This document shows positions 4,104 through 58,331 of a DNA stretch of 64,000 nt, one piece after another. A program made the position numbers and the translations under genes. The notes below the pieces were generated by a model. It saw nothing but the letters and a program-made list of their open reading frames with translations, was not told the DNA's origin and searched no databases. Within the stretch, counting starts at the first letter, position 1, and each line of letters begins with the position of its first letter. The stretch spans positions 32,001 to 96,000 of IMG/VR virus record IMGVR_UViG_3300042468_000945, one strand, 5' to 3'. Source of the DNA: a virus.

Positions 4104-6347
4104 TTATCTCACTGTTATTTTGTAATCTTCAAGAATAGGACCAGAAAAAGTTAATGGTTCCTTAATTAAATCAAAACGAAGTTTTACAGAACTAATAGAG
4201 TTCAAAGTTTCAGGACTACTTGTGTACTCAAGTTCATAGTTGGGGTTGCTTCCTTTAATATAACCATCAACACTAACAGTATCCCACGCATTGAACAAGA
4301 TAGCTTTTCCTTGTGTATCCCACGCCCAAAAGTTAAAATCTTGTGGTGTGTTCCACATAAGCTCAAATTCTGAGTTTGCTTTAGACTCTCCACTTGCTAC
4401 TACCTTGGTTATTCCAGCATCAAGTTGAAACTTCTTGTCAAAGAAAGATGGGAACATAGAAAACTGTAACATTGGTTTAAAACCACCTGCTCCATTATCG
4501 TTTCCGTATAAATCAGGGTCTAGTGTGTGTAGGTATGTTTCAATAAGATTCCAACCTTTTCTAAGAGTAAAGTTAAAAGATGATCCAAGATTACCAATTC
4601 CATTTACCCCACCCTCAACAAAACAACCATTTGTATCAGCTGTTGTGTAAACTGTAAAAGGTTTGTTAGATGTAATAACAGTAGACTTGTTAATGTCCAA
4701 AGTAAAACCACCATAAACCTTACTAACTTCAGTAAAGGATTTAAATGATCTATCTCTATATCCTTGTAGGAAAGAATACTTAGCTTGGTCAACAAAAAAG
4801 TCATTCTCACAGTAAACAAAGTAACTTACTTTGTATGTAAAGTTTGGTTGACATACATTCTTTGTTTTACCGCCACCTAACATTAAATAACAAAGATTTT
4901 GGTATTTATCTCCTGTTACTTGAAACTCAAACGGAAGAATTTCTGCTCCCTTAATTGCAGATGTATTTTGTGAGCTTGTAGGTGGTAAGAATAATTGAGT
5001 TGTATTTGTTCTTTCATTAAGAGTAGGTACATTAAGCCATGTTCTAAACTTCTTAATGTCCTGACTTAGAAAATCATTTTCTGCTGGTGTGTGTGGGAGT
5101 TCACCTAAAGCTGTATAATCTTTTTTGAAAGCAGTTACTTCAACTTGATTTTTACCAACTAAAAGAGATCCTTCTGTATAAGTGGTAGGTGCATTAGTTA
5201 CATCTACAACCCAGAAACTTCCTTCCTTTCTTACCTTTGATTTATCAATTTTAACAATATTGTTTTGATTTAGTTGCAGATATTTCCATGCTTGTTTTTT
5301 AATTTCAGTCCAAGTAACCCCAGAGTCGTTTGATATGTATGACTTAATGTATGTACCAGCTGGAATTTTAGATGTAAAATCTAAAAGTATTTGAGAATAG
5401 TTTATTGGTATGTTAATATCTCTACTACGAAGAGTAGCTATATCTACGGTATTCTCTGTAAACAATCTGATATTTCTGATACCAACTGTTTTAGGTAACA
5501 CAGCTGATGCTGGCTTGTATGTTATTTTTAATTTGCGTACATTACTATGTCCAACAATAAAAGTAGTTGTCTTGTAGATAATCTCAGTATTAACAAGTTC
5601 AAAACCGTTTCCTTTATTTACTTCAATTTTTACTTCACAACCAAAACCTGTTGGGTCAATTTGAATGTTAGATATATTATACTCCTTATCAAAAGAGTAC
5701 ACAGCATAGCTTTCTGCATTAGCTGTTACAAACATGGTCTTCCAACTGGTATTCTCTAAACCATCAACAGCATCAAGAGGAGATGAACCTAGAGAATCTG
5801 ATCCTTCATCATTATCAACAGAATCCACTCTAATATTTTTAGGGTCTATTGAACTTGAAACTACTGAGTTAGGTAAAAATACAATTCCTTCACTAACATC
5901 AAACCATGCTGAGGTGTTTGTTAAATCAATATTCTCGGCACTTGTAAAACTATCACCAAAAACAAACGTCCCATTATAACCAGACTTGAATCCTTCTAGG
6001 TCTGCTGTTGCTTTTAAATATTTGGCTTTGTTTTTTAAATTCTGAGATCGCACCCAAAATTCATTCTTTATATAAAGAATTTTTTGCTCAACTTCACTTG
6101 CAGCTTGGTTACCAACTTTCAAGTCTCTTCCATAACCTACAAAGTATTCTGAAATCTTCTTTATATTAATGCTTTCGTTTGATACTGCAATATACTGATT
6201 TACTAAAGGCAAACCAAAAGATTTCTTTTCAATTGATCCCAACATTCTTTTAAATGTCTCAGGAGTTGACAAAATTTCAAATCGAGTAAGACCCAATTTT
6301 GCCGCATCATCAAAAAGAACTTTCTTTTGTGTGTTATCAATTATCAT
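4104..6347 (-). CDS. Virion structural protein (paralog family member 2) with discoidin/F5-8C-like beta-sandwich
   Basis: Coiled N-terminus, GDSFTSAENIDLTNTSAWFDVSEGIVFLP, DAVDGLENTSWKT (discoidin-like A.DG...T.W), C-terminal SGPILEDYKITVR. Confidence 0.6.
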   Translation of the reverse strand: MIIDNTQKKVLFDDAAKLGLTRFEILSTPETFKRMLGSIEKKSFGLPLVNQYIAVSNESINIKKISEYFVGYGRDLKVGNQAASEVEQKILYIKNEFWVRSQNLKNKAKYLKATADLEGFKSGYNGTFVFGDSFTSAENIDLTNTSAWFDVSEGIVFLPNSVVSSSIDPKNIRVDSVDNDEGSDSLGSSPLDAVDGLENTSWKTMFVTANAESYAVYSFDKEYNISNIQIDPTGFGCEVKIEVNKGNGFELVNTEIIYKTTTFIVGHSNVRKLKITYKPASAVLPKTVGIRNIRLFTENTVDIATLRSRDINIPINYSQILLDFTSKIPAGTYIKSYISNDSGVTWTEIKKQAWKYLQLNQNNIVKIDKSKVRKEGSFWVVDVTNAPTTYTEGSLLVGKNQVEVTAFKKDYTALGELPHTPAENDFLSQDIKKFRTWLNVPTLNERTNTTQLFLPPTSSQNTSAIKGAEILPFEFQVTGDKYQNLCYLMLGGGKTKNVCQPNFTYKVSYFVYCENDFFVDQAKYSFLQGYRDRSFKSFTEVSKVYGGFTLDINKSTVITSNKPFTVYTTADTNGCFVEGGVNGIGNLGSSFNFTLRKGWNLIETYLHTLDPDLYGNDNGAGGFKPMLQFSMFPSFFDKKFQLDAGITKVVASGESKANSEFELMWNTPQDFNFWAWDTQGKAILFNAWDTVSVDGYIKGSNPNYELEYTSSPETLNSISSVKLRFDLIKEPLTFSGPILEDYKITVR

Positions 6348-30779: not shown

Positions 30780-33700
30780 TTTTAGCTCCTATATTTTTAA
30801 TCCTCTTTAAGTATTCAGTGTCAGATTGTGTGTGGCCATAATCTGGAACTTCTATACCAACTAGAGCCGCTAAGATAGTTGTACCTTTAGCCGCTAGACC
30901 ATCATGTTGTCCACCTAACCAACCACCCAAGAAATTATCAAAAATAGATAGATCATCTCCTACAACACAACCTTGGTGTCCTCTAATACCAGCAACATAA
31001 GGAAGGGATGTACCATTACTATCTCTTGTTCTCAGAGGAATAATTGTTACAGCTTGTCTAGCTCTTAGTGTAGAGTTAGCATAGTCTATAATAGAAGCAC
31101 CAACTGTAAACCTAATAACCTCAACAGCAGCCCTTAAAACAATAGCAGGAGATAGCCATGATACTGCTTTAATAGACGGAGCAATTACTTTCTTCATTCT
31201 ACTTGCAGCTATGGCGACTTTTTCATTTTTGAAAACAACTCCCAACTCCTTAGCAGCTAGAAAATCATCAACTTTTTGTCCTGTTGCTTTAAGCGCATTC
31301 TCAGCAATTTTAATTCTTTCAACTAATCTAACAGGATTAGAGGCTTCCCTTACAACAGCTTTCAGTTCATCATCGGCAGTTGCAATACCAGCTGCCTGAG
31401 CAGCAGTAAATTGTTGTGCTGTTAAACCTTTTCGATCAGTAAGTAACTCAACAGTATCTAGTTCCTTAATAAAGTCATTCAACCTACCCGCATCATTAGG
31501 TAAGTCTGTTTCAATCATATAGTTTAAACTTTCAACGTCTTTTAAAAGATCATTCAGTCTCTTTTCAAGAACTATTTTTCCTTCAACTGTAGTAGCTGCA
31601 TTATAAGCAGTTTCAGCTTCTTTAATTTGTTCTGCCCTCTTAGCAATTAATTCATAGGCATTTTTTATCTCTTCTTTAATTTCTGGTTCTATTAATTTAA
31701 GCTGGTCCTTGAGTCTTTTTGCCACAATACTATCAGCAATCTCAATAACTTTATCTCTATCTAATGTGTCTTCAAACTTAGCTCCTAACTCTTTTAGAAG
31801 ATCAACATAATAAAGTTGACTTTCTACAGCGATGTTTAAAACCTTTTTCTGTAGGCCAGATGCTAGTCTTAAAGCTGGTAACTCAAGGTCTAAGTCTCTT
31901 GATCGTCTTAAAATATCAAATAAGTTATTACTTGATTTGTCATTAAGAATTCTTTTTAGTTCGTTTAATTGTTTTCTTCTTTTTGCCCCATAAAATGGTC
32001 TGAGTAAAATAGGCTTCTTCAATTCCAAATCAATCTCAGAAAGAAGTTTTTCTCTGATTTCTGACAGAGAATTAGCATAGAACTTAGTATTTAATTCACT
32101 AGAACCTAAAACTTCTAGGGCTTGGTTAAGTTCCGCAACCCTCATGTTGAAAGGCATATATAGTTTCTTAGTTAAGTATGCTGCTACAACTGTTGTTACT
32201 GCCCTTCCAACCATGTATTGACCTACTTTATTTACAGGTCCAACTGATAAAGCAGTAACTAGTTTTGTTCCTTGTACGCTAGTAAATGGAAGTGCAACAC
32301 AATCTGGAGTTATCATAGTGACAAACCCCCTTTCTGAGTTTAAAATGTGTGTAACGTTTCTTACAAACAAAGGACCTTCAAGACTATTAATAGTATCATT
32401 CAATAAGACAATATCATTTGGTTTAATACATGCTTGTCCTTGAATAGAGAACACCCCAGAATACATAGTTTTAACTGTATCACACAAACCAGTTAGAACA
32501 GAGTTTTCCACTGCTGGAGTATCTGGTACTCCTTGTAATGAGTCACCCACAACAGGTACAAACTTACCAACAGCATCTTTAAAAGATTCGTAATAACCTT
32601 TTTGAGCGGCTGTTACATATAATCCAGTATCAACAAGTAAAGTTTTTCTTTCTGCTGGTTGGATATCACTATCAACACTATAGGTTAATGTTCTAGACAT
32701 GTGATCTGTTGAAGCCACACCATTAAAAGTATTAACACCTGTTGCGTCAGTAAAGACTGTTGAAGCATCACTAGATATTGAATTTGACAGCAAGTTTAAA
32801 CCAGTAATTGCTGGCCATACTTGGGTGTAACATTTCCATTTAAGGTGTTTTGTGTAGTTATTAACATCTTTTAATAGTTCAGCTTGTTTATCAGAAGTGT
32901 TTTCAATGTTTTTAAAATCGGTTACATAAGATACTGTTACCAATCTCGGATTCTGATTTATTTGATCAGGACCAAACTTTGGTGATACGGAGAATCTGGC
33001 TCTCACAATATCTCCGTCTGCTCGTTTTAATGTAACATACTGTACAAGATCTCCAAGAACTGACCCCTGAACAAATCCTGGTTCAACTTCATTCCTCTCT
33101 AATACTTTCAGGACAATATCTTTTGAATTAGTAGCCTTTAAATATGCAGCAACCTGGGGCAAAAGTGGTTTAGTATTTGTAGTTTCTTCGTTTTCCAACA
33201 AAGGGGGTCTTTGGTATTTTAGAATAGATGGGTCATAAGCATAATTAAATGGATACCACCAACCACCAAAGAAGAGGGTTGATCTTGTATGGAATGGTTC
33301 TACTGCTGTAACAAAATCCATTACTGCCATTCTACATACGTTAGCAGTCTTCCAAACAGAAGGTTCTTTAACACTAACAGAAATTAGAGTAGTACCAGCC
33401 CAATTATAAATTGCATTCTTGCTGGCAATTTCACTCAACCAATTAAATTGTTGGTACATCAATCCTTTTCCTGCACCATACATATTCATAAATAATTCAG
33501 GAGTGTGGTATGTAAGTCCAGAATAATACACGTCACCAAAGTGTGGCGTTACACACCTCTTACCATACCTACCACCAGTGACTACACCAGCTATATTACC
33601 AGCTATGTCATTAGGAACCATAGTTTGGGCAATAATGTAAGCAGGTTCAGTTCCTGTTCCTGCAAAACCTGTAGGACTTTGATAACCTAAACCACCATCG

Positions 33701-53201: not shown

Positions 53202-54035
53202 TTATCCTATAAATAAATCTTCTAATTTAATAATCTGAATGTTTTTAGCTTGGAAAGTATAAGTTTCCATCAATGCTCTACCATCATCTGAAATTACTTT
53301 ACTAATTCCACCAAGACTAACACCTACAAGTTTTAATCCGCTTGCAATTTTAGTGTCTGCTTTTGGGTCGTTAGTTGTAGTTGCATCACTTACTAGTGTA
53401 TCACTACCTGTAAATCTTAATACTTGTTCACTTTTTATTTGTGAACCATAAATAATATTTAAATCAAAACCACCTAAAGTTGTCTCTAACATACCTGAAT
53501 TGTTGGATATGTTTGCTTGACTGTTAGGGGTAGATGTTTGTAATTCCCTATCATTAACTGTTTTAATAATGTCTGAGAGGAGTTTGCCTTTATATTTACC
53601 TGCTTTAATGTCTGCTTTAATTGTATCATCATAATTAAAAGCACCATATTCAGTCAATACAGCAGGAATGGGGGAATTAACCTCACTATCTCTTGATGCA
53701 GGTAACCAATTATCCTCTTTCTTTAAGGCATCAAGTAAAGAAAAAAGATAACCATCTCTCTTAAAGTTAAGGGTTAACTCACCAGCAACTATTCTTTGTC
53801 CGTGAATAATTCTATTTGCTACATGACTTGCATAATTATACAGTGGTCTTATTGGTTCTAGAATTTGATATGAGACTTGTACAGCTTCTTCTAGCCTAAT
53901 ATTATTAGCATAAACGTTTACATCTAAACCAGACCAGTAAGTAGAATTATAACTATCAACGACTCTCCACCTTTCTTCACTGTTGTAAGATAATCCACCC
54001 CTCACATTCAATGAGTCTCTATTGGTTTCTTCCAT
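53202..54035 (-). CDS. Tail-tube paralog (baseplate-proximal tube initiator, gp48/gp54-like)
   Basis: YWSGLDVNVYAN...VSYQILEPIRPLYNY...HGQRIVAGELTLNF...FDLNIIYG...ETYTFQAKNI is collinear with the tube protein at 55751. Confidence 0.65.
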   Translation of the reverse strand: MEETNRDSLNVRGGLSYNSEERWRVVDSYNSTYWSGLDVNVYANNIRLEEAVQVSYQILEPIRPLYNYASHVANRIIHGQRIVAGELTLNFKRDGYLFSLLDALKKEDNWLPASRDSEVNSPIPAVLTEYGAFNYDDTIKADIKAGKYKGKLLSDIIKTVNDRELQTSTPNSQANISNNSGMLETTLGGFDLNIIYGSQIKSEQVLRFTGSDTLVSDATTTNDPKADTKIASGLKLVGVSLGGISKVISDDGRALMETYTFQAKNIQIIKLEDLFIG

Positions 54036-54037
54036 GT

Positions 54038-55696
54038 TTACGCCTCTCCTGTATTAGTATTTGATATGGTACTTATAATATCCTCATTGTACAAGAAAAT
54101 GCTCTCAGCATCTTGAGCTAAGAAATCAAACCCAGCAGAACTTGTGTTTACGGAGTTTTTATTCTGTTTCTTTATATAAGTACCAGACCTTGCACCATTG
54201 TCTTCATATTTAAGTCCGCTATTGCTTATTAAAAGGTAAGGATTAGGAATAAATTCAGTTGAACCGTCAAGGTCACCTCTTGTTGACTGGGTAGTGCCAG
54301 ATCCTCCGCTACTCCTTGCACCTAGTCTGTCGTCTGGTACTACTATAATACCCCCACCGCCGCCACCGCCTCCTCCACCTCCACCACCGCTTGGTGGTGG
54401 TGTGTTTGGTTGTGGTGTTACTGGTGCGTTAGGTACAAGAGCATCACAATCAGTCACAACTCCATCTATAATAGCAAACTTATTGTGGTTCCATATATCA
54501 CCACTAAGATAAGCATGGCTTGGACCTTTTAATGTTATATTTACAACACTACCATACCCATCATCAACAATATCAAGAATTTGAATTGGATTAAAGTCTT
54601 TATCCAACAGAAAGTCCCCAATATGTAGTTCACTTAATAGCTTGTATTTGTCACAATCATCTTTACTAACACAAAATCTGTGGGTTTTGGTGCATTTAAT
54701 TATGCCATTGTTTGTGTAAACTCTGTATACTTTTTGGTTTGCAGCATGTTTAATGTGGGTGATTTCTTCTTCACCAAACCATGAATCAACAAACTCACCA
54801 ACAACTAAATCTTCTACTTTCTTACGTCCATTTTTTGTAGGTACTTCAGATCCATATCTTAAACAATTAATACAAGTTAGACCTAAATCTCCTGAGTCTG
54901 GAACCTCTTCTGGAGGTATGATAGGTGGGGTGTTTGGACTAGTTCCACCTCCACTTAAACCAGAATCAACCCCAGTTAAGTCACCACTAACAGCACCAAC
55001 TAAAGCCGCAATAATGGTGTTGGTTAAAATAATAGAAGGAAGTGTACCCACCACTTTATCAGCAGTAGCTTGTACTTTGCTTGTCGTTGTTTTACTATAA
55101 ACATCAAACCCAGACAAGTCTTGTATTTCAGATATGGCTTCTGCCATAAAGCTAAAAGTTTCATTAAGCACAATATTATCTGTACTTACACTCTTAGCAG
55201 AGTCCAGGATGTGTATCCCTCTAATATGGAAATAAGCGTTATCTCCTTTTATTTGGCTACTTTCAAATAAAACCAATAGATCAAAAGGAGGCAATTCATC
55301 AGGCAGAATTGTGTAGGATTGGAAAGCATTCCCCATCCATGCAGCGTATTCTCTTATGAGTGGTGCAAATGGGTTTTCATTAATAAACGAAAATGCAATG
55401 GAACCAGCAACCATTCTATGCCCTTTAGTTGTGGCTCTAATACCTCTTCTACCAAGACTAACTACAGGGTATTTATCTCTGTGAGTAGATATAGAAAGAA
55501 GAGATACGTTATGTAAATCTATTTGGGCTAATTTTGAATTTTGTGCTTGCTTTGAATAAGGAATCAAAGCAGTAATCTTCATATTGGCAAAAGAGTAATT
55601 CTTTGCTCGTTGCCAGGATACGGGTGGGTTAGAACCTTTAGTCCATACAAATCCACCACCGGTGTTGTCACCAACATTTAGAAGATTACCTGTCAT
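54038..55696 (-). CDS. Tail-tube paralog fused to a Hint (bacterial intein-like) domain and Gly/Pro-rich C-terminal region
   Basis: N-terminal YSFANM...LSISTHRDKYPVVSLG...KGHRMVAGSIAF...LPDELPPFDL...ETFSFMA is tube-like. Hint domain at aa 278-405. Confidence 0.7.
   Translation of the reverse strand: MTGNLLNVGDNTGGGFVWTKGSNPPVSWQRAKNYSFANMKITALIPYSKQAQNSKLAQIDLHNVSLLSISTHRDKYPVVSLGRRGIRATTKGHRMVAGSIAFSFINENPFAPLIREYAAWMGNAFQSYTILPDELPPFDLLVLFESSQIKGDNAYFHIRGIHILDSAKSVSTDNIVLNETFSFMAEAISEIQDLSGFDVYSKTTTSKVQATADKVVGTLPSIILTNTIIAALVGAVSGDLTGVDSGLSGGGTSPNTPPIIPPEEVPDSGDLGLTCINCLRYGSEVPTKNGRKKVEDLVVGEFVDSWFGEEEITHIKHAANQKVYRVYTNNGIIKCTKTHRFCVSKDDCDKYKLLSELHIGDFLLDKDFNPIQILDIVDDGYGSVVNITLKGPSHAYLSGDIWNHNKFAIIDGVVTDCDALVPNAPVTPQPNTPPPSGGGGGGGGGGGGGIIVVPDDRLGARSSGGSGTTQSTRGDLDGSTEFIPNPYLLISNSGLKYEDNGARSGTYIKKQNKNSVNTSSAGFDFLAQDAESIFLYNEDIISTISNTNTGEA
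54482..54865 (-). other. Hint domain (128 aa, no endonuclease), C1...HN followed by Lys
   Basis: CLRYGSEVPTKNG.KKVEDL.VGE.V (block A), IKCTKTHRF (block B TxxH), L.IGD.L, VVNITL...HAY..GDIWNHN (blocks F/G). The +1 residue is K, not C/S/T. Confidence 0.88.
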
Positions 55697-55712
55697 ACAA
55701 ATTCAAATAGTA

Positions 55713-55736
55713 CCTGGGTGGAGATTTCCACCCAGG
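55713..55736 (-). terminator. GC-rich hairpin after the major tail tube gene (terminator or mRNA stabiliser)
   Basis: Perfect 10 bp stem CCTGGGTGGA / TCCACCCAGG with a 4 nt loop. Only a weak U-tract follows (TACTATTT). Confidence 0.6.
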
Positions 55737-55750
55737 ATTTTGTTTAACTA

Positions 55751-56554
55751 TTATCTATTAATAGTTTCAATAGCTGTCCAAGGAGTGACAGCAAGAGCTA
55801 CAAAAGCCATACCGACAGAGTTACCCATGTCGTTTTGGCTGTAACCGCCAGTTTCTTGAGTAATTTGAATACCGTGAAGCAGACAACGAGCAGCAGCACC
55901 AGACTTGTTCACACCAACTAACGCAATGTCAAATGGAGGAATTTGGTCAGAATACATAACCTTCGTATCTCGTACAAACCTAGCAGCATCAATAATTTGA
56001 TCTCTAAGTTGGTCTTGTTGATCTTGAGCACTTAGACCTCTGAAGTTAGACAAGTTACCAAGGTTGTTTGCATCAGTATTGCTGAAGCTTGATGTAACAC
56101 CCAAAGGATTTGATCCCCTTGTATTTGCTGTGTTTACATTTCCATTAGCAAGATTGACTCCATTAGTAGGTGCTCCCGATGAGAGGTTCCACAAGTCGCC
56201 AATTGTACCGATGTCTAAACCATTCACTTTATTGTGAAGTTTAAATACTTGTTGAAGCAATGCGTGTCTTGCAAATTGTTGCAAAACCATAGAACCAACT
56301 ACAACACGCTTACCTTGAGTAAAGGCAACTGGGTCTCTTCGACCCATGACGTGGTTACTAACTGTTTCTGTTTGAATTGTCCAAGATACTGCTTCAACGT
56401 TACCAACCTTGATTTCGTTGAAGTATACTTGTAGGTCATGACCTGAGAAAGTTGAATCAGCAAAATCCGCAACGCTGAATGCATCTCTAACAGGCTTATA
56501 GTTCGCACTCTGCGGACTGTATGCGGTTCTTTGAAAAGGGTTTGTTCTAGCCAT
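55751..56554 (-). CDS. Major tail tube protein
   Basis: TFSGHDLQVYF..KVGNVEAVSWTIQTE....HVMGRRDPVAFTQGKRVVVGSMVL...DQIPPFDI. Directly downstream of the sheath gene and followed by a hairpin. Confidence 0.75.
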   Translation of the reverse strand: MARTNPFQRTAYSPQSANYKPVRDAFSVADFADSTFSGHDLQVYFNEIKVGNVEAVSWTIQTETVSNHVMGRRDPVAFTQGKRVVVGSMVLQQFARHALLQQVFKLHNKVNGLDIGTIGDLWNLSSGAPTNGVNLANGNVNTANTRGSNPLGVTSSFSNTDANNLGNLSNFRGLSAQDQQDQLRDQIIDAARFVRDTKVMYSDQIPPFDIALVGVNKSGAAARCLLHGIQITQETGGYSQNDMGNSVGMAFVALAVTPWTAIETINR

Positions 56555-56576: not shown

Positions 56577-58331
56577 TTAGTCAACTTGTCTCACTGAAAC
56601 ATTCAACTTAATTTGTCTAATCGCACTAGAAAGAGCAAGTTCTAACAACACAGTTACGATACCTAATGCTGCTTCGGTTCCAGCCATTTCAATGCTGAAG
56701 TCGTATCCTTCTCCTCTACTACCTCTAAGACCACCAGACAATGCGTATCCAGCCAAGACGTTTTCCACCTTAGCTTCCATAGCTGCCTGAGTTCCATAAC
56801 CCAAAGTCTGTCCAATGAACGGTCTAAGAGCAACTTGAATGTCCTTTTGAATAGATGCACACATATTCATTTGCTGATAATTTCTGAAGAAATCATCTCT
56901 AGCAGATGCAGTAACATCATCATTGATAACCAAAGGTCCAAGAGGACTGATTTGGTCTCTGACGAGTACAACGTATGCTCCACCACCGCTGACATTGTTA
57001 TTAAGGTCAGCACCTACTCCATTACCTAACAACACAGCAGTGCTTTGTGGGAATGGTCTAGTATAACCTTTAATACCTGGCAGGGTTCTTTGAGTTGTTG
57101 ATTGCTCAGGTGGAATAGTAGTCAAGAATGCAGCGTAAGATACGTGTGGTTGGTAGTTGTAATCTCCGCCCATGTCTGGGTGATTGTAGATTACGTCTGG
57201 ACCAGCAACAACAGATACGTTACTGAAGACATCTTTAAGAGTGCCATTAGTACCAGATCGAGTTCTTCCAGTAGCAAGAATAGGACCAGCTTTAATCCAC
57301 TTAGATGCTTGTCGGTAATATCCGTATGATGTTGCTAACAACGAATCATTAGCGTAAGTAATGATATCAGCATTATCTCTAAGAGGATTGCTTCTAGTAG
57401 CCATAACTCCATGACATTGTGTTTGCTCTGAGCTTACAGCATCAATGAAGTCAGCAAAGTCATTAAGCAGGGATGTTGAAGTTGCGTTTCCACCAGCAGT
57501 TACCTGGTCATCAACGTGAACACCTGTCAATACAGCTACATCAAATGGGTATCTACTATCTCTAATTGATTGGAATGTTCCAGTCGTTGCGTTAACAAGT
57601 CCGAGAGCATAATCAAACAGACCACTTCCAGATGTTGTAAAGTGTTCAGGACCATAAGTTTCGCCTCTTGCAAAGCAACCATTAGTACCACCTGTAAAGT
57701 TAGCTGTACCAGAAGTTGCAGCATAGATTGAGGACAATGTAGAAGCAAGATATGGATTTACAGTAGCAGAAGTATCATTAAAATCAATACTCTTATTTGC
57801 AAAGTTTGTATTGACTCGAATAATAAATTCGCCTAATGTAGTACCACTTGCGCTACCTGTAAGGACTAGGTTACCACCCTTTGTTAAAGGTTGGGTCAAG
57901 GTAAAGGTATAAAGGTCACCTACAATACCTAGAGATACAGATTGGGTATTGTAGATTCGTCCTGGGTTTCTAGCAACACCTGTTAAGTATCCACCACCAC
58001 CCAAAGTTACAGTTGCTTTGGTTCCTGATGCTCTAACAGCAACAATGTCCCGCGCACCAGCAGCAATTGCTTGTGCAATAGCTAATGGCAGAGTACTTCC
58101 AGCATACTTGTTAGATTCAGTGCCTGTAGTCGGGTCTAGGTAGCCCTTACTATAATTTGCAGGTCCGAATACTCGTTCTGCTTGTGTTCCGTCAGTGATA
58201 CGAACAGGACTATTTAAAGGACCATCCTGTGCTGTACCGATAATAAGTAAAGTGTTTGTTGAAGGACCTTCAACAATTTGCTTTATCTTCCCTCCAAAAA
58301 GTGAAGAGGTAAATCCAGTTCTTATTGCCAT
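56577..58331 (-). CDS. Major tail sheath protein
   Basis: LLIIGTAQDGPLNSPVRI...AERVFG, AIAAGARDIVAVRA, TGGTNG, C-terminal sheath domain (VALRPFIGQ...LELALSSAIRQIKLNV). AGGAG Shine-Dalgarno 7 nt before the ATG. Confidence 0.88.
   Translation of the reverse strand: MAIRTGFTSSLFGGKIKQIVEGPSTNTLLIIGTAQDGPLNSPVRITDGTQAERVFGPANYSKGYLDPTTGTESNKYAGSTLPLAIAQAIAAGARDIVAVRASGTKATVTLGGGGYLTGVARNPGRIYNTQSVSLGIVGDLYTFTLTQPLTKGGNLVLTGSASGTTLGEFIIRVNTNFANKSIDFNDTSATVNPYLASTLSSIYAATSGTANFTGGTNGCFARGETYGPEHFTTSGSGLFDYALGLVNATTGTFQSIRDSRYPFDVAVLTGVHVDDQVTAGGNATSTSLLNDFADFIDAVSSEQTQCHGVMATRSNPLRDNADIITYANDSLLATSYGYYRQASKWIKAGPILATGRTRSGTNGTLKDVFSNVSVVAGPDVIYNHPDMGGDYNYQPHVSYAAFLTTIPPEQSTTQRTLPGIKGYTRPFPQSTAVLLGNGVGADLNNNVSGGGAYVVLVRDQISPLGPLVINDDVTASARDDFFRNYQQMNMCASIQKDIQVALRPFIGQTLGYGTQAAMEAKVENVLAGYALSGGLRGSRGEGYDFSIEMAGTEAALGIVTVLLELALSSAIRQIKLNVSVRQVD

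Follow-up and report, generated by a model that had tools for sequence, protein, structure and literature searches.

The window analysed here is a stretch of 64,000 nucleotides (positions 32,001 to 96,000 of the IMG/VR virus record IMGVR_UViG_3300042468_000945), and the subject of this work is a gene on its minus strand, P0001, whose product carries a complete Hint (Hedgehog/intein) domain within a tail-tube paralog. The record as a whole comprises 118 kb at an estimated completeness of 66%, and the source virus is an uncultured freshwater jumbo-type phage. From its N-terminus, P0001 consists of a tube fold, a first linker (linker 1), the Hint domain, residue K406, 15 mixed residues, a Pro-rich stretch, 13 glycines and a tail of 103 residues, the part from K406 to A552 amounting to 147 residues (Table 1). 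A preliminary description of this DNA, made from its letters alone, had given the tube domain, the linker, the 128-residue Hint, K406 and the 13 consecutive glycines, all of which we confirmed with its residue numbering; its estimate of about 95 residues for the C-terminal part fell short of the 103 observed.

Table 1. Features of P0001 and its neighbouring genes, in window positions.
Feature	Positions	Strand	Description
P0001, whole open reading frame (ORF)	54038..55696	minus	552 aa + stop; tail-tube paralog with embedded Hint-Lys module
Tail-tube fold, aa 30-195	55112..55609	minus	AlphaFold2 (AF2) model, Foldseek, phrog_9206, 1278 relatives
Linker 1, aa 196-277	54866..55111	minus	Low AF2 confidence (pLDDT); Gly/Pro-rich end ...PPEEVPDSGDLGLTCIN
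Hint domain, aa 278-405	54482..54865	minus	128 aa; C278, T336/H339, N386, H394, H404, N405
H404-N405-K406, C-terminal junction with +1 Lys	54479..54487	minus	H, N and K invariant in 12-row alignment
Pro-rich stretch, aa 422-436, and 13 consecutive Gly, aa 437-449	54350..54433	minus	Glycine codons of varied GGN type; independent contigs free of indels
Orphan tail of 103 aa, aa 450-552	54041..54349	minus	S/G/T/N/I/D-rich
P0003, third, more distant tube-like paralog	53202..54035	minus	277 aa; weak phrog_9206 match
P0002, major tail-tube protein	55751..56554	minus	267 aa; phrog_9206, E 1e-31; synteny with 0305phi8-36 gp140
P0004, tail sheath	56577..58331	minus	584 aa; phrog_16991 tail sheath; Pfam Gp18_domIII_N

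The P0001 stretch was present letter for letter in Logan contigs from several lake and freshwater metagenomes. In three freshwater or lake runs not flagged as source, independent contigs span the poly-Gly run with 0 differences and 0 gaps, bridging the end of the Hint, the glycines and the start of the tail (X6 record 2, 54235-55800; X8 record 18; X9 record 25). Because these contigs cross the region without differences or gaps, misassembly at the GGN run does not account for the long reading frame. Among the sequencing runs listed, none of those containing the stretch was an RNA run.

Hint and tube domains of P0001

We modelled the Hint domain with AF2 on the 12-row Hint alignment, a full-length model built on a tube-only alignment having given a poor Hint, and obtained a predicted local distance difference test (pLDDT) score of 81 and a predicted template modelling (pTM) score of 0.73. 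A Foldseek search returned 64 Protein Data Bank (PDB) matches at E<=0.001, and the matches listed were all inteins, bacterial intein-like (BIL) domains or Hedgehog proteins. The top match was the gp41-1 intein (template modelling score by target, TMt, 0.92; root-mean-square deviation, rmsd, 1.5 Å), followed by Tetrahymena BIL2 as the second distinct match, the C. thermocellum BIL, DnaB mini-inteins and Hedgehog, with BIL2 and the C. thermocellum BIL both in the top five distinct entries. The model held by the ESM Atlas itself reached template modelling (TM) scores of 0.81-0.88 to PT-HINT and Hint clusters, including clusters of phage gpJ-FN3+PT-HINT proteins, and phmmer aligned the P0001 Hint with gp41-1 at E 0.002. 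The predicted beta-fold places residues 278-405 in the Hint superfamily. A word-indexed search with residues 270-415 gave no match at E<=0.01, which reflects the sensitivity limit of that search and is not evidence of absence.

The catalytic positions could be read at N277|C278, at T336-K-T-H339 in block B, at H394 and at H404-N405 followed by K406; these residues and the fold match together bear out the earlier proposal of a complete Hint ending in His-Asn. With an N-terminal Cys nucleophile, a block-B Thr-x-x-His and a terminal His-Asn that has no Cys, Ser or Thr at +1, the domain has the features of type-A BILs and PT-HINT domains (PF07591; C. thermocellum BIL, PDB 2LWY, among its top structural matches), which the preliminary description had rightly named as the nearest functional analogues. 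It further shares with them a size of about 130 residues, the lack of an endonuclease and a place in variable regions of non-enzyme proteins. It differs in its +1 residue, a Lys that is conserved in the P0001 group and variable in RHS/PT-HINT toxins, and in its host, which is a phage virion tube paralog rather than a secreted bacterial toxin and has no toxin domain after the Hint.

The class-1 mini-intein gp41-1 (PDB 6QAZ/6RIZ) resembles the P0001 Hint with a TMt of 0.90-0.92, an rmsd of 1.5-1.6 Å, 24-25% identity, a length of 128 residues and the C1...HN ends; gp41-1, however, is split and trans-splicing, has Ser at +1 and belongs to a replication-type gene, whereas the P0001 Hint lies in one chain with Lys at +1, Asn at position 4 of block F and no conserved exteins. 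Hedgehog/Hog proteins (PDB 1AT0) likewise carry a Hint behind a functional N-terminal domain and self-cleave via a Cys thioester, and the P0001 orthologue and many relatives also have the Hint at or near the C-terminus. Hedgehog Hints, in contrast to the P0001 Hint with its conserved HN-K and 147 residues behind it, have no terminal His-Asn and possess a sterol-recognition region.

The N-terminal domain (residues 30-195) was modelled with pLDDT >90, and Foldseek matched it to the tail-tube proteins of phage 812, lambda gpV, PVC/AFP, diffocin and Hcp at a TM by target of ~0.7. It matches phrog_9206, and its relatives at E<=0.001 number 1278 representatives. In gene order, P0001 comes after the sheath (P0004) and major tube (P0002) genes and before that of the tube-like paralog P0003, whose start codon lies 2 bases past the P0001 stop and whose type is kept as the next gene in loci L002 and L004. 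P0001 therefore combines both marks of the tail-tube family, the tube beta-sandwich fold and a gene beside sheath and tube. Bacillus phage 0305phi8-36 has the same order of sheath, tube, paralog and next virion protein, followed by two chaperone-like genes, and its gp141 is annotated in GenBank as 'tail tube paralog; identified as virion protein by mass spectrometry'. P0001 shares the gene position of gp141, and the tube domains are 28% identical; gp141 differs in having an extension of ~300 residues without a Hint. P0001 is a minor tail-tube paralog, and on the strength of the fold and of its place right after the sheath and tube genes, like that of gp141, the assignment made in the preliminary description stands.

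Past the glycines, the tail (residues 450-552) is acidic (isoelectric point 4.3), contains no Met or usable internal start codon and was modelled by AF2, without alignment depth, at a pLDDT of ~30. No relative was detected by sequence comparison, no Pfam match was found, and an ESM Atlas search with these residues gave no usable match. Several candidate origins were considered and rejected: homology of the tail to the end of the Hint-less tube homologue P0006 scored weakly (E 0.28, z 2.1-2.5), the same P0006 segment fitting linker 1 better; the tail is not a degenerate second Hint (score -1.3); and it is unrelated on comparison to the tails of other Hint proteins with Lys at +1. In L002 a 69-residue ORF, P0007 (7191-7400), is tightly packed behind the orthologue's Hint gene and ahead of the next paralog, where the window has the 103-residue tail; the two show no similarity, so that P0007 was rejected as a counterpart and the analogy is positional only.

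Descent of the Hint domain

For the homologues, the preliminary description had raised two questions, namely whether their C-termini vary or lack the Hint, and whether a precise mobile-intein insertion can be recognised. C-terminal extensions in the tube family proved to be hypervariable (S/T-rich, Ig-like or peptidoglycan-binding-like), and among the best 150 of the 1278 tube relatives only P0005 bears a Hint besides P0001. This orthologue (L002, 5965-7179) was found in a 235-kb contig and in a 22.7-kb contig, and a metagenome scan with the tube alignment yielded only distant Hint-less tube paralogs and no further orthologues. Between the two lineages the Hint is 40% identical and the tube domain 49%, values that fit one old acquisition followed by co-divergence. 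Despite the 40% identity, C1, TxxH and HN are conserved; block B reads S-T-S-H in P0005 where P0001 has T336-K-T-H339, and in the P0005 lineage 21-22 residues follow the terminal Asn.

A precise insertion was not seen, and only the upstream side of the Hint aligns to P0006. Residues 232-272 of P0001 align with the C-terminal extension of P0006 (z 3.8, 1/200 shuffles) as far as the motif 'SGDLG', 5 residues ahead of C278 and ~25 from the P0006 end, which indicates that the Hint was added near the end of a pre-existing extension and not between two conserved extein halves. Within linker 1, residues 215-237 (window 54986-55054, minus strand) form a hydrophobic, transmembrane-like stretch, VVGTLPSIILTNTIIAALVGAVS, with a Kyte-Doolittle mean of 1.96; such a stretch also occurs in P0006 (1.67) and not in P0005.

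The hallmarks of a canonical intein are missing in other respects as well. K406 occupies the +1 position in place of Cys, Ser or Thr, and no homing endonuclease was found within the 128 residues. The Hint segment does not depart from the average GC content of the genome, and of the signs of mobility (endonuclease, sporadic distribution, foreign composition) none was found for the P0001 Hint. The large terminase of the same genome (Terminase_6N; G000:C1:105961-109128, L031, outside the window) contains two adjacent canonical inteins, which end ...THN|C and ...VHN|S and one of which bears a LAGLIDADG homing endonuclease. The P0001 Hint is not a mobile splicing intein. Sequence comparison is best explained by vertical, non-mobile descent of a Hint acquired in the variable C-terminal extension of P0001.

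Lysine at the +1 position in phage virion Hints

A first Hint scan, with patterns from the N-terminal half of the two tube Hints, led to two adjacent FN3 proteins (L009, one of them at 1658-2554) with a PPFF-repeat linker and a Hint, both of which end ...HNK-stop. A second scan led to large fibre-like proteins with Hint and Lys in L012, L015 (a 434-kb phage) and L016. In L013 (IMGVR_UViG_3300050505_000042, 2-2284) a coiled-coil tape-measure-like protein continues through a poly-Pro/12-Gly linker into a PT-HINT domain, HNK and a tail of 113 residues, a layout that is the closest analogue of the internal Hint of P0001. The proteins of L012, L013, L015 and L016 have HNK followed by 7-113 residues, and those of L013 (54 bits), L015 (39) and L016 (36) pass the Pfam PT-HINT threshold.

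For an unbiased survey of the +1 residue, we trimmed eight Hints before HNK and used them for a profile search, in which the domain ends were set by the hidden Markov model without the Lys. The closest matches (P0158-P0167), which include FN3-Hint-K-stop proteins and tandem Hint arrays joined as HN|KGGG|C, had Lys at +1 almost throughout, whereas the inteins of DnaE, RNR, helicase and terminase had Ser, Cys or Thr and the RHS/PT-HINT toxins varied (A, C, N, T, V, K). Overall, Lys occupied +1 in 28 of the 44 complete Hints and in nearly all of the closest. In the 12-row Hint alignment the only invariant columns were C1, one Gly, H, N and K. The earlier statement that a +1 Lys excludes canonical splicing holds.

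P0001 thus fits an informal 'Hint-Lys' group of phage virion proteins, defined by a Hint that follows a low-complexity linker, lies at or close to the C-terminus and ends in HNK, and in a tree of the 44 complete Hints P0001 and its orthologue pair with support of 100/99. Related Hints end HNK-stop or continue for 7-33 unrelated residues, in contrast to the 146 residues that follow the Lys in P0001, and the tails of long-tailed members are unrelated to one another. As far as these sequences indicate, conservation extends to the unit [virion domain]-[low-complexity linker]-[Hint]-Lys and not to a released cargo; the functional core would accordingly lie at the N-terminal junction and in the Lys. 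Since many of the proteins stop one residue past the terminal Asn, the catalytic module may well include the Asn-Lys bond or the Lys itself. When a fibre-type member of the group was compared by tblastn with 50,697 phage records, the only matches were helicase inteins of Vibrio phages, and no cultured model phage was identified.

Unusual arrangements were seen in some relatives. P0158-P0160 and P0162 (880-1007 residues; one a TIM44-like domain protein from a Micrarchaeia metagenome-assembled genome) have three to four N-terminal tandem Hints with HN|K-G(1-5)|C joins, followed by a Gly/Ser-rich stretch and a TIM44-like region. In L014 (IMGVR_UViG_3300046804_004993, 1898-2671), a 258-residue ORF has the look of a circularly permuted or split Hint: blocks F-G (MNYEVVNISTDVKTYIANGVLTHN|K) come first, then a domain of ~146 residues and then the N-terminal Hint part of ~96 residues (C|LTPNTQ...NSIDYI-stop), the break falling exactly at the usual split-intein site. 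The fibre-like ORF upstream ends ...GGIIGGA and two TAA stops. In engineered systems with such a permuted layout, the middle part is cyclised. Alternatively, the L014 ORF may be what is left of a tandem array after decay; a second copy of the permuted Hint was looked for and none was found.

Predicted processing, alternatives and further observations

Taking sequence, models and analogy together, we consider the P0001 Hint to be probably an active self-processing module of the type-A BIL/PT-HINT kind that at least detaches itself, the case of ligation included. In the chemistry that we infer, the precursor (59.1 kDa) would fold first; C278, aided by T336 and H339, would convert the N277-C278 peptide bond into a thioester, and N405, aided by H404 and H394, would cyclise and thereby break the N405-K406 bond. 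Lys at +1 would make canonical trans-esterification impossible, so that the thioester would be resolved by water or by an amine. Water would give three pieces, a 29.7-kDa tube paralog with linker, a 14.6-kDa Hint and a 14.9-kDa tail (Hint and tail still joined would measure 29.4 kDa). If instead the alpha- or epsilon-amine of K406 attacked, the ligated product, without the Hint, would have 44.5 kDa. By either route the bulky Hint would be removed from the tail subunit after translation or assembly, and delivery of a conserved cargo would not be the conserved outcome. Type-A BILs, which end in His-Asn and have no nucleophile at +1, mostly cleave and can ligate by aminolysis (PMC4031507). A self-removing C-terminal module of phage tail proteins is also known in the S74 intramolecular-chaperone autopeptidase of tail fibres and spikes (PMC7824862), which differs from P0001 in its unrelated fold, its Ser-Lys chemistry and its occurrence on trimeric fibres rather than a tube-fold protein.

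Several observations weigh against self-processing by a conserved Hint-Lys module. At position 4 of block F, P0001 has N386 where Asp is usual; the block-F His is missing from the orthologue P0005, and the block-B His from the L009/P0163 subgroup, so that activity may be weaker or different. By sequence alone the evidence for the P0001 Hint is weak: its Pfam scores lie under the cut-offs (Intein_splicing 21.8 bits, Hint_2 15.9 bits), and PF07591 gave no match to P0001, a genome-wide search with that family included. The tube-Hint fusion was seen in only two lineages. L012, L013, L015 and L016 came from a scan whose pattern required HNK and were not counted for Lys conservation, and the Hint tree leaves the deep branches and a Hint-Lys clade unresolved, so that we make no claim of a single clade.

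Amine-mediated ligation as the main outcome, with the Hint-Lys module as a ligase-like splicing element, is an alternative that we regard as unlikely. Here the epsilon-amine or post-cyclisation alpha-amine of K406 would attack the thioester and rejoin the tube paralog to the tail by an isopeptide or peptide bond, without the Hint, or, in another form, a Lys in an adjacent tail subunit would receive the thioester and give a covalent cross-link. An invariant Lys after which many proteins stop at once is hard to explain by the N-terminal junction alone. Ligation by aminolysis is established for type-A BILs, although cleavage products dominate in those tested (PMC4031507). In Tetrahymena BIL2, the second distinct structural match, the epsilon-amine of a Lys resolves the thioester and an isopeptide forms, but that Lys is not described as the +1 residue (PMC8616854). 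The preliminary description had considered neither aminolysis by type-A BILs nor the Lys isopeptides made by a BIL. BIL2 (BUBL; PDB 6Y75/6TMM) shares the Hint/BIL fold with P0001 at TM 0.71-0.74; it differs in being eukaryotic, in its ubiquitin-like flanks and Zn activation and in an identity of 15-16%, and a chemistry shared with the phage Hint is only an analogy. The permuted layout of L014, (blocks F-G)-K-146 aa-(N part), would be sensible only with joined ends, although it occurs on one contig and may be decayed.

In a more specific form, which we find rather doubtful, the +1 Lys would itself be the nucleophile, and Hint-Lys modules would carry out an ATP-independent 'isopeptide splice' that moves the C-terminus of a virion protein (N277 in P0001) onto a Lys epsilon-amine; the acceptor could be K406 in the tail of that protein or a Lys on an adjacent tail subunit.

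That the Hint is inactive and domesticated, and that the tube-paralog extension uses it as a mere folded spacer or as decoration, appears improbable. The Asn in block F, the His lost from block F in the orthologue, the sub-threshold Pfam scores and the decorative domains (Ig-like, peptidoglycan-binding-like) that tube-family extensions often bear would all suit this explanation, but C1, TxxH, HN and K are kept in both lineages at 40% identity and across the wider group, and a decoration needs no nucleophile, no terminal Asn and not exactly one following Lys.

The preliminary description saw the purpose of the domain in freeing the 147-residue C-terminal peptide during assembly or infection, as is thought for PT-HINT toxins. 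The Hint-HN-x-linker-tail layout does resemble that of PT-HINT toxins with tails of 60-170 residues, and the acidic tail is in frame in independent contigs. As a main function, however, cargo release is quite improbable: the orthologue lacks the tail and has only its short post-Asn segment, the P0001 tail has no detected relative, Pfam family or confident fold, and in other Hint-Lys proteins the tails are unrelated or absent.

A canonical mobile intein with normal splicing is hardly tenable, even with the gp41-1 mini-intein as the best match in structure and sequence, given a conserved Lys at +1, no homing endonuclease, an insertion site that is not conserved, a downstream 'extein' without homologue, co-divergence of the Hint with its host protein and the genome's real inteins in the terminase with Cys or Ser at +1.

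Phage inteins and BILs are known from replication and packaging enzymes. In the searchable literature we found no paper describing a Hint as a built-in part of tail-tube paralogs, fibres, tape-measure-like or FN3 tail proteins. If active, the P0001 Hint would add a new, protease-independent maturation step to tail assembly, and the strict retention of a Lys behind the terminal Asn is a hint that the chemistry may go further than hydrolysis. Should the isopeptide splice be true, it would be a new self-contained ligation chemistry that staples phage tails, in the permuted L014 perhaps cyclising a protein, and Hint-Lys chemistry could become a compact tool for protein ligation. P0001 is the most useful member of the group for testing, because its internal Hint would give distinct products (29.7 + 14.6 + 14.9 kDa versus 44.5 kDa). 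Its locus contributes an internal Hint-Lys with a long tail, the contrast with the terminase inteins of the same genome and the unbiased survey of the +1 position.

Two minor observations concern relatives of the tube domain. P0122, P0140, P0146 and P0148 (439-585 residues) have, as judged by eye, peptidoglycan-binding-like repeats in their C-terminal extensions, with the motif ...NG.YD..T..AV..FQ.... In the distant relative L004, a 398-residue ORF (4703-5899), by eye an IS200/IS605-type TnpB-like protein, lies between the tube gene and the tube paralog.

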